A DNA stretch of 64,000 nt. Origin: Heptranchias perlo (lineage: Eukaryota). A model generated the notes under the pieces. The model saw only the letters and a program-made list of their open reading frames with translations, did not search any database and was not told the origin of the DNA. A program made the position numbers and the translations under genes. The stretch's first letter is position 1. Each line of letters opens with the position of its first letter. Positions 12,171 through 49,822 of the stretch are shown one piece after another. Location: NCBI RefSeq assembly GCF_035084215.1, contig NC_090364.1:4092001-4156000 (forward strand), read 5' to 3'.

Positions 12171-12932
12171 TGTCTGAATAGTTTGTATTTCTGAAAACAG
12201 ACACAGGGACAATAAACAGCGGGAAGCAAAAGAAGTTTCATTTTTAGAGTTCTCCGAGTCAGAACACTGAAATTGAAGCTCGTGTTCACATAAATCTCTC
12301 TGTGCCAGCCGGAAGGGTCTGGTACGAAATGGGATTGGGGCCAGTCCCAGGCAGTTGCTAGTGGGCACAGATGCACAGCAAGCATCCCATCTTTCAGAAA
12401 CTGGCATTAAGTGGGCACTGGGGGACAGGGTTGAAATCGAATTGCCTGCTTGCTGCCTCACTGAATCACCCCATTCACACCTCAGAGAAGCTCCATAAAT
12501 CAACGTCAGAAAAAAAAAACACAAGAGCGGGCCCACACACTCTGACCACACTCGCCCAGCAATTTCCTCTAAAACCCACTCATCCAATTCTACTAGGCGA
12601 AACTAATTTAAAAACGTAGAACGTAACAAAATAGCTGGCCGTGTGTACTTAAAAAAGGTAGGATTGGTTGGAGCTGCTTTGCATACCTGAATTTGGCAGT
12701 GGCATCAACTATCCCTTTTTATACTGGTTGGACTCTGCTGGCCTCTCAGCCACTGACCACCTCTCCAGATGAGCCACAGTCACTCTGCAAATGGCCAGGA
12801 CCAGCTGTTTATAGGACTAACTGGAGTTAAACTGAGGTAGCTATAAGAGAAGGCCCAAGGATGGTCATACTGGTGCAGTAGGAGGTGCTCTTCTCAGGTT
12901 GAGGACAGAATAAAGGGAGCTTCATTCAGTCC

Positions 12933-13206
12933 CTAACCCGTGCTGTACCTGCCCTGGGAGTGTTTGATGGGACCGTGTAGAGGGAGCTTTACTCTGTATC
13001 TAACCCGTGCTGTACCTGCCCTGGGAGTGTTTGATGGGACAGTGTAGAGGGAGCTTTACTCTGTATCTAACCCGTGCTGTACCTGCCCTGGGAGTGTTTG
13101 ATGGGACAGTGTAGAGGGAGCTTTACTCTGTATTTAACCCGTGCTGTACCTGCCCTGGGAGTGTTTGATGGGATAGTGTAGAGGGAGCTTTACTCTGTAT
13201 CTAACC
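12933..13206 (+). repeat. 67-bp minisatellite, ~4 copies
   Basis: Unit TAACCCGTGCTGTACCTGCCCTGGGAGTGTTTGATGGGACAGTGTAGAGGGAGCTTTACTCTGTATC. Confidence 0.95.
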
Positions 13207-18265: not shown

Positions 18266-19319
18266 TCTGTTTATTTGATACAAACGTGGCCGTGGCTCCC
18301 AGGCTGCTGTGCAAACTCTTCCTCTTTCCCACCCCACAACCCCCACAGGATTGCCACTGGCCATCTCACACACTGCACCACGGGGAAAGGGGTAGTGTAG
18401 TAGTTATAGTCATAAACTAGCAGCCCAGAGCTTGTGAGATCCGATCTCCTGGCAAGTTGTGGGTTGGAACCAGGAGGAAGGATAAACTGACCGTGAACAC
18501 TGCCGGGTTGTTGTAAAAACGCAACTGGGTCATTAATGTCCTTCAGGGAAGGGAAGGGAAGCTGCTGCCCATACCCGGTCTGGGCTACATGCGACTCCAG
18601 CCAAGCACTGCGTGATCCACTCTTAATGAAGGGGTGGGTAATAAATGCAGCCGTGCCAGTGTCACCCACATCTCAACAACAAATTAAAGAAAATGATTGG
18701 GATTCACTCTGCCTCTGGACCCAATCTTGTCCCTCTTATTCTGATGGTGCCCTTTTTTCCCCCAGGATAGTTCCACGGGTCCCAGCTCTCGCTGCTATTT
18801 CCCCAGGGTCATTTCTTCGTGTGCGAGTCCAGTCTGTTGGGCTATTCACCCACGAAGGCCATAATAGCTGGGCCCAATTCTATTCTCACGGTGTCCGCAA
18901 ACGCACAGTTTCCAGGAGAGCTCGCTACGTAGTGATTAGGAGCAGTGCCTAGCTGGTGTTTCCCCCTCTCTAACCCAGTGGCTCTGAAGCCAACTCCAGC
19001 ACTCTGGCTGCTGCCCCGGTGGAGATTGGCAAATCTGCGACCTTCGGATCTGTAAGGTTCAGCACTACACCGGGTGATGCCTTAACCTGTTGGGGAGTTT
19101 GGCAGTTTTTACAGTTGCGATTCCCACACAGGCTTGTGTATATATATTTTTTTTAAATGAGAAGGTTTTGTTACAAGTCACATGCAAAGAAAAAAACCTT
19201 CCTTCAAGCATTAAAATTAAAGAGTCATTCACTGACCTGGACAAAATGCCCATCATAAAGAATCATAAATACAATGCGGCACTTTGGCATCACACTGCTC
19301 CTGGTCCTTAAATTGGCTC

Positions 19320-19690
19320 TCCTCCGTGTTTTCAAATCCCTCCATGGTCTCGCCCCTCCCTATCGCTGTAACCTCCTCCAGCCCCACAGCCCTCCAAGAT
19401 CTCTGCGCTCCTCCAATTCTGGCCTCTTATGCATCCCCAATTTTCATCACCCCACCATTGGCGGCCGTGCCTTCAGCTGTCTAGGTCCGAAGCTCTGGAA
19501 TTCCCTCCCTAAATCTCTCCGCCTCTCTAACCTATTTTAAGACGCTCCTCAAAACCTACCTCTTGGTCACCTGTCCTAATATTTCCTTATGTGGCTCAGT
19601 GTCAAATTTTGTTTGATAATCGCACCTGTGAAGCTCCTTGGGACGTTGTGCTATGTTAAAGGTGCTATATAAATGCAAATTGTTGTCGTT
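19320..19690 (+). mobile_element. L2 LINE 3' fragment
   Basis: Same family motifs. Confidence 0.88.
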
Positions 19691-20419
19691 GAATCAGCAT
19701 CTCAGTTAATAAATATTGGAACAATCCAGCAGTTGTACCTGGAATATTATTTTGATTGGTGGGGATTAACAGTACCAGACATGTTAGCCACCAGGCCTGA
19801 TGTGTGACAAATCAACATTGCATGCGGCCCAATACAATTTAATAGTACGGTTGGAGGTGCCACCTCTCAGGTGAAATGTTAAACCAAGGTCCTGTCTGCG
19901 TGTTCACGCCGATGTTAAAGGTCCCATGACTACTCAAAGGAGGGCAGGGAGATCTCCTGGTGTTCCCGGCCAACATTTCTCCCCATCAAAAAGTAGATTC
20001 ATTGCTCATTTGTGTCATCACTGTTTCTGGGAGTTGGGTGTGTGGCTGCTTTGTTCATCCACGCATAAACTGTAACTGTGCTTAAAAAAATAATTCAGCA
20101 TACATGAAGTGCTTTGGGATGTCTGGTGATAAGGCTCTACCTAAATGCAAGTTAGTTTTTGTACGGTACTCCCACTACAAATCAAGTCACATTCGTACTA
20201 ATGGAGGCAGAGCTTACCCATAGTGCTCAGCAAGAGTGAAACAGCTCTATAACTTATAGTGACTCTAAAGCGCTTCACCCCAACTTGGGAGAATGGGCGA
20301 ATTCCTCCGCTATTAGCATAGGTAGAGATCCTAGTGACAGCTCTGGTGTAGTTCGCTGCCCCTCACTCCGTAATGCCCGCTGCCCCTCACTCCGTAATGC
20401 CCGCAGCGGAGCTACTCAC

Positions 20420-20518
20420 CTTCTCCAGGATCCGGATCACTCCGGGGATCAGCGTGTCCTGGTCATGATTCCGTTTTGTGCTCGTGTGCAGAAACACGCC
20501 CTCTTTCTCAAAGGCTAC
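20420..20518 (-). CDS. TBC1D17: TBC1D17 exon 2 (VAFEKEGVFLHTSTKRNHDQDTLIPGVIRILEK)
   Basis: AG/GT bounded, 99 nt, resembles human VVFEKGGVYLHTSAKKYQDRDSLIAGVIRVVEK. Confidence 0.95.
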
Positions 20519-20747
20519 CTGCAAGACAAATCACAGCCACAGACTATTAAAGGGGCAGTAATCCAACTCCCTGTTTGCGCCAGTAGGGCATCAAACCTTA
20601 AACGTGTACGTACAGCATCACACCTGAAGTGCAGCACCTCGTGTGCACGGCTTGGCTCAAATAATCACTGTCTGGTAAATTAACCATGCCAGTTGGCTCA
20701 AATATAGACAGGTAGGAAAAGCTACCAATCAACAACCTGCATAAAAC

Positions 20748-21160
20748 TGGTGTAGTGGTTCTGTTACTGGAGCAATAATCCAGGGAACATGAGTTCAAAT
20801 CCCAACATTGGCACTTCGAGAATTTGAATTCACTCTTTTAAAAATCTGGAAATAAAAAGCTGCTATCAGTAAAAAGTGACCATGAAGCTGTTGGAATTGT
20901 CATAAAAAACTGGTTCACTAACGTCCTTTAGAGAAGGAAACCTGCCGTCATTACTCGGTCTGGCCTCTATGTGACTCCAGTCCCACATCAATGTGGTTGA
21001 CTCTTAACTCTGAAGTGGCCAAGGAAGCCACTCAGTTGTATCAAATCACGACAGCGGTTAAAGGCAGCCCACCACCGCCTTCTCAGGGCAACTAGAGATG
21101 GGCAATAAATGTCGGCCTTGCCAGCAACTCCCAGATTCAGAGACTGAATATATAAAAAAA
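20748..21160 (+). mobile_element. Second tRNA-derived SINE family (other copies 18390-18690, 21690-21824 -, 37178-37392)
   Basis: A box TGGTGTAGTGG, B box GAGTTCAAATCC, shared body AACTGGTTCACTAA.GTCCTTTAG.GAAGGAAACCTGCC, tail GGGCAATAAATG..GGCCTTGCCAG. Confidence 0.75.
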
Positions 21161-22429
21161 AAATCAGGAACCAGCAACTTCTGCAAAAAAATGACTGCCT
21201 GAAAATCTTTTCTCCAACTGTTTCGAGTGGCCACCTTGGCCTAATGAAGCCCATTCTATACAGCTAAAAATAACATTTCCAAATAAAATAACTGAACAAA
21301 ACAGAACCATAAAGTCAATCGCTGTATCAGACTCCAGACTACTCTTGAGCAACACCATTCGAGATCAGCAAGTATATATTAACATGGTTTAAACATTGTT
21401 TGTAATAATGGGATCTCATCCGGAAAAGGTTCAGCACAGACTTGACAAACACTAAGGCTAATTTTCTCGATATGTAGGTGCCTGGATAGTTCTTAATCCA
21501 GAGACGGTACATCCCACTTAATTGCACGAAATTAATGTTTCTCCCAGAAATCCCAATCCACCACTGGATATGATGACTTGTATCAATTATTCACTTGTAA
21601 AGTTGCCCAGAGTGTCACAAGACTTGTGTAGTACACTGCCAACGAGTCCTTACCTTGCACTGTACAGTGCACTCAACCAATAGAAGGAACTTCTTTAACC
21701 ACTGTAGTGGTTTGATACAACTGAGGGGTTTGCTAGGCCACTTCCGAGGGCAGTTAAGAGCCAACCACGTTGGTGTGGGGCTGGAGTCATATACAGGCCC
21801 AGACCGGGTAAGGACGGCAGGTTTCAATTGTCAAATATTTTCTACCCTGCTCTCTTGAAGGAGATGAGCACTGCTGAGGCACAGGCTCATGGCAGCTCCA
21901 ACCCTCCAGTGACACTCCTAAATGGCCATCTTTCAAGTGTCTCCCCAGGGAGCCTATTCCATAGATTGACCACTCGTTCACTGAGATATTGTTTCCACAG
22001 ATTAGTTTTGAATTTATCCCCTTCAGGCGCAGGCTGTATCCTCTGGTTCTACTGTTCTGGAAAAGGAGAATTAGCTTGTCATGGTCTACATTGAAATGTT
22101 GGCCACCCTGGAATAGATGTTATATGTACACTTACATTAAAAAAAAATGGATTTCCCAAAACTATACACCACCCAAGCCCATAGACACGATGAAAGTCAG
22201 TACTCAGGTCTCTGAAAAGGATGCACTGAAATCAAGAGGAATTCGAGGCTGTTTGCAAATGATTCTTTTGCTGATTTTCTTCAGTCTCATGGAAAGGTGT
22301 CTGGCCTCAAAATAGCATGCAGCTGCTGGAGTGTACCTGTCACTGTCAAACTACAAATTACAACATTCCAGGGTGGCCAATTTTTCAAAGCTCAAGAGCC
22401 AGAAAAATAAATTGTATTCTGAAAAAGAG

Positions 22430-22765
22430 CCACAAGTGTTAACTACACATACACCAGTATACTCGCCAATACTCTCACTGCAACTACACCTATACTAGTA
22501 CACTCACCGACATTCTCATTGCAACTACACGTATACTAGAGTTAACATTTCAGGTCGATGACTGATTCTCACTAACTACACTCGTACTCACACCAACATT
22601 CTCATATTAGTACACTTACCAATATTTTCACTACATATATACTAGTGCTCACTGATGGTCTCTGTAACTACATATAAACTAGACACTCTCACTATTTTCT
22701 CACTGTAATTACACATATTCTCATACCATTGCTTATATTCCCATTGTAACTACAAGTATACTCTA
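22430..22765. repeat. Degenerate tandem repeat (ACTACACATATACTAGTACACTCAC-like)
   Basis: Recurrent ACTACAC/ATACTAG/CTCAC words with ~45-50 bp spacing. Confidence 0.6.
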
Positions 22766-22769
22766 CCAG

Positions 22770-24637
22770 TGACCCCATCCTTCACCGTATCAGTGTATTC
22801 CTGCGCTACAGTATATAAAGAACAAGTTATTACCTTGTAAACCTATGCGGGTGACCCCCATCCTTCGCTGTATCAGAGTACCCCGTGCTACAGTATGTAA
22901 AGAACAAGTGATTACCTTGTGACTGTCTGCCGGTGACCCTATCTTTCACTGTAGTTATATACCCCTGTACTACAGTATATAAAAGAACAAGTTATTACCT
23001 TGTAACCTATGCAGGTTATCCCATCTTTCACTGTATCAGTGTATCCCTGTGCTTATCACAGAATAATAGAAAGGTTACAGCACAGAAGGAGGCCATCGGG
23101 CCCATCGAGTCTGCGCCAGCTCTATGCAAGAGCAATTCAGCTAGTCCCACTCCCCTGCCCTATCCCCCTTTCCCTGCAAATTTTTGGCTTTCAAGTACTT
23201 ATCCAATTCCCTTTCGAAGGCCATGCTTGAATCCGTCTCCACCACTCCCTCGGGCAGTGCATTCCAGATCCTAACCACGAGCTTACAGTATATAAAGAAC
23301 AAGTTATTACCTTGTAATCTATGCAGGTGACCCTTTCCATCACTGTATCAGGGTATGCCTGTGCTACAGTATATAATGAACCTTGTAATCTATGCAGGTG
23401 ACCCTATCCTCCACTATATCAGTGTATTCCTGCGCTACAGTATATAACGAACCAGTTATTACCTTGTAACCTATGCAGGTGACCCTATCTATCACTGTAT
23501 CAGTGTATTCCTGCGCTACAGTATAAAATGAACAAGTTATTACCTTGTAGCCTATGCAGGTGACGCTATCCATCACTATAGCAGTGTATCCCTGTGCTAC
23601 AGTATTTAATGAACAAGTGATTACCTTATATCCTATGCAGGTGACCCCATCCATCACTGTATCACTGTACCCCTGTGCTACAGTATATAATGAACCTTGT
23701 AATCTATGCAGGTGACCCTATCCTCCACTATATCAGTTTATTCCACTACTACAGTATTTAATGAACAAGTGATTACCTTGTAACCTATGCAGGTGACCCT
23801 ATGCATCACTATATCAGTGTATTCCACTACTACAGTATATAATGAACAAGTGATTACCTTGTAAGCTATGCAGGTGACTCTATCCATCACTCTATCAGTG
23901 TATCCCTGTGCTATAGTATATAATGAACCTTGTAATCTATGCAGGTGACCCTATCCTCCACTATATCAGTGTATTCCACTACTACAGTATTTAATGAACA
24001 AGTTATTACCTTGTAGCCTATGCAGGTGACCCCATCCATCACTGTATCACTGTACCCCTGTGCTACAGTATATAATGAACCTTGTAATCTATGCAGGTGA
24101 CCCTATCCTCCACTATATCAGTGCATTCCACTACTACAGTATTTAATGAACAAGTGATTACCTTGTAACCTATGCAGGTGACCCCATCCATCACTATAGC
24201 AGTGTACCCCTGTGCTACAGTATTTAATGAACAAGTGATTACCTTATATCCTATGCAGGTGACCCCATCCATCACTGTATCACTGTACCCCTGTGCTACA
24301 GTATATAATGAACCTTGTAATCTATGCAGGTGACCCTATCCTCCACTATATCAGTGCATTCCACTACTACAGTATTTAATGAACAAGTGATTACCTTGTA
24401 ACCTATGCAAGTGACTCTGTCCATCACTAGATCAGTGTATCCCTATGCTACAGTATATAATGAACAAGTTATTACCTTGTAATCTATGCAGGTGACCCTA
24501 TCCTCCACTATATCAGTTTATTCCACTACTACAGTATTTAATGAACAAGTGATTACCTTGTAACCTATGCAGGTGACTCTGTCCATCACTAGATCAGTGT
24601 ACCCCTGTGCTACAATATTTAATGAACAAGTGATTAC
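22770..24637 (-). repeat. 81/71-bp minisatellite (~20 units) in TBC1D17 intron 1, derived from the exon 1/intron 1 junction
   Basis: Periodic CCTT anchors at 23381, 23462, 23543, 23624, 23695 ... 24475, 24556, in register with the true donor at 24637; interrupted by a CR1 fragment. Confidence 0.95.
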
Positions 24638-24664
24638 CTTCAGACTCTCTGCCGGTGATCCCAT
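24638..24664 (-). CDS. TBC1D17: TBC1 domain family member 17, coding exon 1 (MGSPAESLK)
   Basis: ATG in strong Kozak context (AGGATGG), followed by phase-0 donor AAG|GTAATC; joins exon 2 in frame; short first coding exon as in vertebrate TBC1D17. Confidence 0.82.
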
Positions 24665-24699
24665 CCTTTTCACTTCTCTTTTTTTCCCCCAAAACAAAC

Positions 24700-48997: not shown

Positions 48998-49822
48998 GCA
49001 GGGAGCAGGGCCTAGCTGTACACGGGTACACGCGGGGAGCAGGGCCTAGCTGTACACGGGTACACGCGGGGAGCAGGGCCTAGCTGTACACGGGTACACG
49101 CGGGGAGCAGGGCCTAGCTGTACACGGGTACACGCGGGGAGCAGGGCCTAGCCGTACACGCGGGGAGCAGGGCCTAGCCGTACACGCGGGGAGCAGGGCC
49201 TAGCCGTACATGGGTACACGTGGGGAGCAGGGCCTAGCTGTACACGGGTACATGCGGGGAGCAGGGCCTAGCTGTACACGGGTACACGTGGGGAGCAGGG
49301 CCCAGTTGTACACGTAGGGAGCAGGGCCTAGCTGTACACGGGTACACGCAGGGAGCAGGGCCCAGTTGTACATGGGTACACGCAGGGAGCAGGGCCCAGT
49401 TGTACACGGGTACACGCAGGGCCTAGCCGTACACGGGTACACGCGGGGAGCAGGGCCTAGCCGTACACGGGTACATGTAGGGAGCAGGGCCCAGTTGTAC
49501 ACGGGTACACGTGGGGAGCAGGGCCTAGCTGTACACGGGTACAGGCGGGGAGCAGGGCCCAGCTGTACACGGGTACGTGTAGGGAGCAGGGCCTAGCTGT
49601 ACAGGCGGGGAGCAGGGCCCAGTTGTACACGGGTACGTGTAGGGAGCAGGGCCCATTTGTACACGGGTACGTGTAGGGAGCAGGGCCTAGCTGTACACGC
49701 AGGGAGCAGGGCCCAGTTGTACACGGGTACGTGTAGGGAGCAGGGCCCATTTGTACACGGGTACGTGTAGGGAGCAGGGCCCAGTTGTACAAGGGTACGT
49801 GTAGGGAGCAGGGCCTAGCTGT
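48998..49822. repeat. ~34-bp minisatellite (GGGAGCAGGGCCTAGCTGTACACGGGTACACGCG)n with 25-bp deletion variants
   Basis: Direct tandem repeats. Confidence 0.96.

Follow-up and report, generated by a model that had tools for sequence, protein, structure and literature searches.

A minisatellite spanning the first exon-intron junction of TBC1D17 in the shark Heptranchias perlo

The locus and its junction array

The window, a 64-kb stretch of the Heptranchias perlo genome, carries TBC1D17 on the minus strand. Residues 1-524 of the H. perlo isoform P0025, which contains PH_RBD and RabGAP-TBC domains, are placed by tblastn on successive exons from 24664 down to 744, and exons 1 and 2, translated together, agree exactly with residues 1-42 of both H. 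perlo isoforms, P0022 and P0025. The coding part of exon 1 begins with an ATG at 24664 and comprises 27 nt up to the donor at 24637 (Table 1). Intron 1 is 4,119 nt long, has GT..AG boundaries and ends at the acceptor at 20518. RNA evidence was taken from assembled contigs of three runs (X1-X3) of one sample, recorded as RNA by guess, in which rare forms are dropped; these extend the transcribed 5′ part of exon 1 to at least 24962 (run X2 contig 24635-24962; run X3 contig 24635-24866). None of the runs contains half of the words of the window, which has no bearing on expression. P0022 and P0025 have 606 and 607 residues and unrelated short C-termini, compared with ~664 residues in other sharks; the affected exons lie beyond the left end of the window. 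Other loci of the PH_RBD family in this genome (L010, L011 and L013-L015; G000 C31, C28 and C21) are presumably TBC1D15 and SGSM-type genes.

On the plus strand, AKT1S1 (PRAS40) is arranged head to head with TBC1D17. Contig coverage of this gene at 25402-25761 leaves less than 450 nt between the contig-covered 5′ ends of the two. Its non-coding first exon is spliced to an exon extending from near 31512 onward, the frame of which matches PRAS_NT.

Table 1. Features of the TBC1D17 5′ region in the window (a slash marks a splice boundary)
Feature	Position	Strand	Evidence or remark
TBC1D17 exon 1, coding part (9 codons, phase 0)	24638..24664	-	Contigs, protein identity
Authentic 5′ splice site AAG/GTAATC, first array element	24632..24640	-	Run X2 and X3 contigs join here to exon 2
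TBC1D17 exon 2, 99 nt, start of PH_RBD domain	20420..20518	-	Contigs, tblastn, domain match
Proximal array of 17 complete units (81 nt in 12, 71 nt in 5) plus the start of an 18th	23284..24637	-	
First unit, sole stop-free in-frame extension (27 residues) were donor 24556 used	24557..24637	-	Putative use
In-frame TAA, codon 49, met by all longer exon 1 extensions	24518..24520	-	
Interspersed-repeat insertion of ~230 nt splitting one unit, limits approximate	23052..23283	-	312-nt spacing; many divergent contigs pile up
Distal, less homogenized copies, donors 22998, 22915 and 22833, and last partial copy without donor	22769..23051	-	
54-nt pseudo-exon TAG/ ... AAG/GTAATC, copy closest to exon 1	22916..22969	-	

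The initial annotation took this short segment as the start exon of the gene, and the N-terminal protein comparison agrees. A first segment of 7-10 residues precedes the exon-2 motif in shark, ray, coelacanth, gar, turtle and frog proteins (50 proteins examined, 44 of them parsed by that motif). The short first segment is thus older than sharks, making exon 1 the source of the adjoining repeat and not its product; an origin of exon 1 from the array is rejected on the same grounds.

Tandem Repeats Finder reports periods of 81, 152 and 233 nt over 23284-24640 and a period of 82 nt over 22769-23053. The unit consists of the last ~37 nt of exon 1 (~10 nt of 5′ UTR and the 27 coding nt) followed by the first ~44 nt of intron 1, and the homology of the copies to exon 1 extends ~10 nt into the 5′ UTR and no further. 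When the array is cut at each AAG/GT, it resolves into the true donor and 20 copies, with donors running from 24556 to 22833. Seventeen of these sites (24556-23310) follow the true donor within the proximal array, which shows a higher-order 152/233-nt structure. The proposed homology between array and ATG exon is clearest for the copy at 22942-22916, which shares 22 of 27 nt with the coding exon in an ungapped alignment. When the terminal AAG is left out, 19 of 24 nt still agree, a value that none of 2,000 shuffles of intron 1 attains (best 18). The other 19 copies match exon 1 at 16-20 nt, each with one 1-nt gap, and because typical units carry this 1-nt deletion relative to the exon, only the 22915 copy keeps the exon 1 reading frame up to its donor. 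The corresponding 54-nt segment, 22916..22969, contains two in-frame stops, and its start codon has changed to ATA. Since the unit is homologous to both the exon end and the intron start, the evidence supports amplification of the exon 1/intron 1 junction as the origin of the array.

The array was first described as holding about 20 in-register decoy donors. Twenty AAG/GT sites do exist, but just four of them (24556, 24475, 24394 and 24313) lie at multiples of 81 nt from the true donor; the other 16 are out of register because five units are 71 nt long and one is split by the ~230-nt insertion. Eight of the 20 lie at multiples of 3 from the true donor, all except the first past the TAA. The true donor and donor 24556 have the same sequence from -3 through +22, and use of the latter would add the 27-residue in-frame insert that had been predicted. 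The TAA at 24520-24518 is likewise in frame, as codon 49. Messages from later donors would therefore contain the premature stop, as proposed, but their decay is less certain, given that codon 49 may be too near the start. A preprint on mammalian genes places the end of the start-proximal zone of NMD escape between codons 22 and 100 (PMC12776119). Codon 49 falls within this range, and half of the copies (10 of 20) provide an ATG of their own 30 nt ahead of the donor, in the reading frame of exon 2, so that transcripts using later donors would not surely be degraded.

Three donor variants are present among the 20 copies: AAG/GTAATC in eight, AAG/GTAATA in seven, and AAG/GTTCAT, which follows a 10-nt deletion, in five. 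The GTTCAT donors have lost the bases at +3 to +6 and retain five rather than seven matches to the 5′ end of U1, whereas the remaining 15 copies have an intact donor core and a U1 match equal to that of the true donor. Because the five copies with the deletion belong to higher-order blocks that recur, they probably go back to a single event. Units 2/12, 4/7 and 5/13 form identical pairs, which suggests recent block duplication or expansion. A weak acceptor-like site also lies 28 nt downstream of the donor in each unit. Selection for retaining or eliminating donors was considered and rejected, as there is no clear sign of it and many columns are invariant anyway (40 of 82 among the 20 copies). 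Recursive splicing at the AG/GT sites was rejected as well, because no pyrimidine tract precedes them (9 of 20 at the two sites scored).

The repeat was found at this locus only. All nine BLAST places in the 3.25-Gb assembly fall in the array (BLAST scores the best candidates only), as do all 10 assembly matches to an exact 24-nt pattern covering one unit variant, with none for the control. A dispersed-repeat origin of the array is rejected on these results. A metagenome scan with the unit core returned 12 matches, none longer than 34 nt, which we treated as chance.

Donor choice in transcripts

One contig in run X2 (861 nt) and one in run X3 (1,973 nt) continue directly from exon 1 into exon 2, their record positions being consecutive and free of intervening letters, and the loose ends of contigs beside exon 1 in both runs consist of exon 2 sequence. 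The apparent 3-nt offset at the junction arises because GTA occurs at the start of the intron and also at the start of exon 2. From the GT..AG join we infer that these contigs represent spliced RNA. The donor used in the spanning contigs (two of three runs, one sample) is the most upstream one, and both contigs skip the distal 54-nt copy. Junctions from 24557, 24476 and further copies to 20518 had been anticipated; the contigs, which drop rare forms, display the first-donor join and no splicing at the second or third donor. At 85% likeness no contig from runs X1-X3 falls on 23285-24589, and at 90% none falls on 22744-22977; contigs being evidence of presence and not of absence, this does not weigh against minor isoforms. 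At the protein level, the two listed H. perlo isoforms begin with the 9-residue exon, and a search for the 48-residue read-through of exon 1 and the first units gave no hits among one candidate (cluster representatives only).

The run X1 contig over exon 2 (20419-20520; 359 nt) starts with 34 letters that match neither exon 1 nor the array, nor anything else in 19000-26000 or 23285-25890. They may derive from exon 1, as a short or variant part of it, or from a different first exon.

We consider it likely that the array is a locus-specific minisatellite past which transcripts join the first donor to exon 2, and that its 20 copies are near-silent pseudo-sites derived from a tandem duplication of likely ancient date. 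Such an array could have formed in a few steps. A single duplication over the exon-intron boundary would have produced a second exon end, to which the present copies are homologous. Unequal exchange or slippage may then have expanded and homogenized the proximal copies into the 81- and 71-nt units with their higher-order repeats, while the distal copies, cut off by the insertion, would have kept an older state. The spliceosome would take the most upstream of the equal donors, a mechanism carried over from human F7 that agrees with the junction in the contigs, perhaps aided by the cap-proximal definition of first exons, which is general knowledge.

A low, constant and unregulated use of donor 24556, and perhaps of 24475, would yield a minor isoform 27 residues longer with no selected role. 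The identity of donor 24556 with the true donor from -3 to +22 would permit this, and human genes provide precedents. Among minisatellites in which the first monomer lies on an exon-intron boundary, those of F7, LMNB2 and PDGF are reported to use only the true donor, and in intron 2 of IFI6 (6-16) and intron 13 of CBS two proximal pseudo-sites are also used (PMC1557585); that is, two of the five use proximal copies. Skate models with a donor 24 nt into intron 1 further imply that the 5′ splice site can be flexible. Against such leakage, both intron-spanning contigs take the first donor and the two listed H. perlo isoforms start with the 9-residue exon. The proximal pseudo-site use described for IFI6 and CBS (PMC1557585) is not seen in the TBC1D17 contigs, which could miss it, and we regard leaky splicing as unlikely here.

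The distal copy and the age of the duplication

The initial annotation expected related sharks to retain a single-copy state. Protein evidence points instead to an old, shared duplication, and centers on P0024, a predicted RefSeq protein (isoform X1) of the basking shark, Cetorhinus maximus. It begins with a 9-residue exon, continues with 17 residues that end like exon 1, and then enters exon 2. The 17-residue insert was fitted to intron 1 by the fewest base changes, allowing one codon gap and imposing no splice-site constraint. The best of 4,063 positions is 22969-22916 (cost 15; 0 of 500 shuffles), a segment that starts after TAG and ends at a donor, neither of which the scoring required. 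By comparison, each of 28 control tiles of equal size costs 19-22. Nor is the fit due to the exon-like tail, since shuffling only the first nine residues of the insert reaches the score in just 16 of 20,000 trials. Scored against the array units, those nine residues need a mean of 8.05 changes compared with 16.0 for shuffles (0 of 5,000; 20 of 21 units, one with an indel and a cost of 17 being left out), and against the real 5′ UTR they cost 17. The first six codons of the insert correspond to intron-derived unit sequence, and the basking-shark insert thus appears to span the junction created by that duplication. Intron 1 was selected as the search space after the likeness had been noticed, although any exon placed between exons 1 and 2 has to come from it. 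Across the full 64-kb window, a 10-residue test is significant (0 of 200), and 9-residue (35 of 200) and ungapped 17-residue (26 of 100) tests are not. A search for short fragments carrying the P0024 N-terminus gave one hit among three candidates and no new N-terminus.

In the basking shark, one of the copies has likely been taken up as an exon, judging from one predicted protein rather than from the DNA of that species. A weak acceptor inside the repeat would allow a copy to become a mini-exon, and the database model suggests that this is likely what happened in Cetorhinus; in H. perlo the segment that matches at the protein level carries two stops. Heptranchias is a hexanchiform and Cetorhinus a lamniform. 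Because the P0024 insert fits the distal copy including its intron-derived half, the duplication likely predates the split between these orders, as far as one predicted isoform can tell. In a preprint, the hexanchiform split is placed at 233-344 million years by one tree, and a Triassic age is cited for the traditional tree (10.64898/2026.02.13.705779).

One base complicates this picture. An identical base in exon 1 and in every copy specifies Pro in this shark, at a position where most other elasmobranch exons compared specify Ser; a later His-to-Leu change is found in exon 1 only and is absent from the copies. The shared Pro base fits a lineage-specific duplication, or a later exchange between exon and array, better than a simple old duplication. 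There was either a younger, independent duplication at the same breakpoint or exchange between exon and array after an old one, and one base cannot decide between the two. A broader scenario would have a single junction duplication, Triassic or earlier and preceding the split, serve as an exon nursery that grew into the 20-copy array here, supplied the basking shark with an in-frame cassette exon and provided carpet sharks, and perhaps a skate, with alternative N-termini, with array and coding exon still exchanging sequence. We offer this as a tentative proposal that is less likely than not.

A second exon-1-like N-terminus is found in models of five elasmobranch species among the 17 seen (Cetorhinus, Rhincodon, Stegostoma, Chiloscyllium punctatum and Amblyraja; incomplete listings). 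These are predicted proteins, and in the main cluster 15 of 38 members were seen, with H. perlo isoform X1 not among them. For isoforms X1 of Rhincodon, Stegostoma and C. punctatum and X3 of Amblyraja, the best fit is again the distal copy, weakly so: unconstrained, the score is reached by 389, 220, 49 and 65 of 1,000 shuffles, respectively, and with GT required next by 31, 24, 2 and 8 of 1,000. Four unrelated N-termini used as controls gave no significant fit to intron 1.

These fits raise the question of whether the distal 54-nt copy is a conserved alternative exon, acting as coding sequence or an alternative start in galeomorph sharks and as a poison exon here, and kept as a switch. It is the copy closest to exon 1 and has an intact donor, and its acceptor tract, with 14 of 20 pyrimidines (12 of 20 for exon 2), is one of the two best among the TAG sites of the array. 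All five species with a second exon-1-like end fit it best within intron 1. However, any exon 1 homolog would fit the most exon-like copy best, so that only the Cetorhinus insert tests the junction. Moreover, the two spanning contigs skip this copy, and its stops, at codons 14 and 17 of the spliced message, fall in the start-proximal zone where NMD is weak. Slow evolution in sharks can also preserve such likeness without selection. A maintained switch is quite improbable.

In skates, models P0016, P0030, P0031 and P0033 have an 8-residue insert starting with Val after exon 1, as would result if splicing used a donor lying 24 nt inside the intron. A GT occurs at that offset (+25) in the window too; comparison of the skate inserts with the first 24 nt of the intron was not significant (453 and 414 of 5,000).

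Comparison with known systems

The TBC1D17 array is most likely one more junction-spanning minisatellite of a kind known from human and amphioxus genes. Its closest counterpart is the 37-bp VNTR in intron 7 of human F7 (Borensztajn et al. 2006, PMC1557585), which as described there shares with it a first monomer that spans the boundary, identical pseudo-sites, and use of the most upstream donor. The TBC1D17 array differs from F7 in its 81/71-nt unit, its 20 copies with higher-order structure, and its position after the first coding exon, so that the start-codon region is included; five copies have a broken donor, and each unit holds an acceptor-like site. For F7, polymorphism and the competence of the pseudo-sites are documented in that study, whereas the TBC1D17 array is known from one assembly. 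The human IFI6, CBS, LMNB2 and PDGF minisatellites are reported to contain 10-25 repeated donors, and that of PDGF intron 4 consists of 16-18 copies of an 81-bp monomer (PMC1557585), the same unit length as in TBC1D17.

The amphioxus 'mirages' of Adh3 and the globins BflGb6 and BflGb9 are likewise tandem duplications of exon-intron boundaries, homogenized except at their edges, and are said to leave splicing undisturbed (PMC3087553). Their edge units escape homogenization, as does the 22915 copy here. The same source proposes mirages as a source of new exons and introns, with recruitment as a hypothetical model; for TBC1D17, a predicted isoform from another shark resembles a recruited unit. 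According to that source mirages are unstable and young, whereas the TBC1D17 junction appears to be shared across the deepest split among sharks. The layout of the array has therefore been described before, and the basking-shark insert is its new element. Literature searches retrieved no paper combining shark, minisatellite, exon-intron and tandem repeat, and none combining exon-intron boundary, tandem duplication, exonization and minisatellite; judged by titles, none of the 14 papers listed for TBC1D17 splicing concerns fish.

The initial annotation went further and viewed the copies as competing U1 sites, such that array length would tune the isoform ratio or level of TBC1D17 as a regulatory splice-site VNTR. 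Although 15 of the 20 copies equal the true donor in U1 match, the first extension is in frame and free of stops, the insert would sit just before the PH_RBD domain, where proteins of other species vary in length, and a 31-bp CBS VNTR has reportedly been linked to enzyme activity, this is the least probable of the readings considered, since two contigs join at the first donor, the F7 pseudo-sites are reported not to compete even when strengthened to a consensus value of 91 (PMC1557585), 16 of the 20 copies are off the 81-nt register, and nothing links array copy number to expression. The length of intronic repeats can alter splicing, as reported for the ABCA7 intron 18 VNTR and for repeats in GTEx (PMC5954066, PMC10078293); those cases rest on associations between genotype and splicing, and the likeness to TBC1D17 is one of idea only.

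Read as a minisatellite with near-silent copies, the TBC1D17 array constitutes a natural test of whether upstream-first donor choice extends to sharks and to donors of first exons. Provided that the basking-shark isoform is genuine, a duplicated junction would have lasted for more than 200 million years and become an exon in one lineage, and the repeat-to-exon model could then be tested across existing shark genomes and RNA-seq data. Should the exon-nursery scenario hold, it would provide a vertebrate case of the proposed route from mirage to exon.

The window also contains other repeats. A degenerate 41-nt repeat at 22441-22770 directly follows the array and shows no significant likeness to the unit (228 and 126 of 500 shuffles). 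Two perfect 24-nt copies at 20354-20404 lie ~15 nt past the exon 2 donor, with a unit that excludes the donor. Further tandem arrays are found at 9-422, 49001-49822, 58370-59018, 12903-13206 and 61140-62070 (31, 34, 23 and twice 67 nt), of which the 31-nt array lies ~320 nt into the intron following the exon at 744-848.
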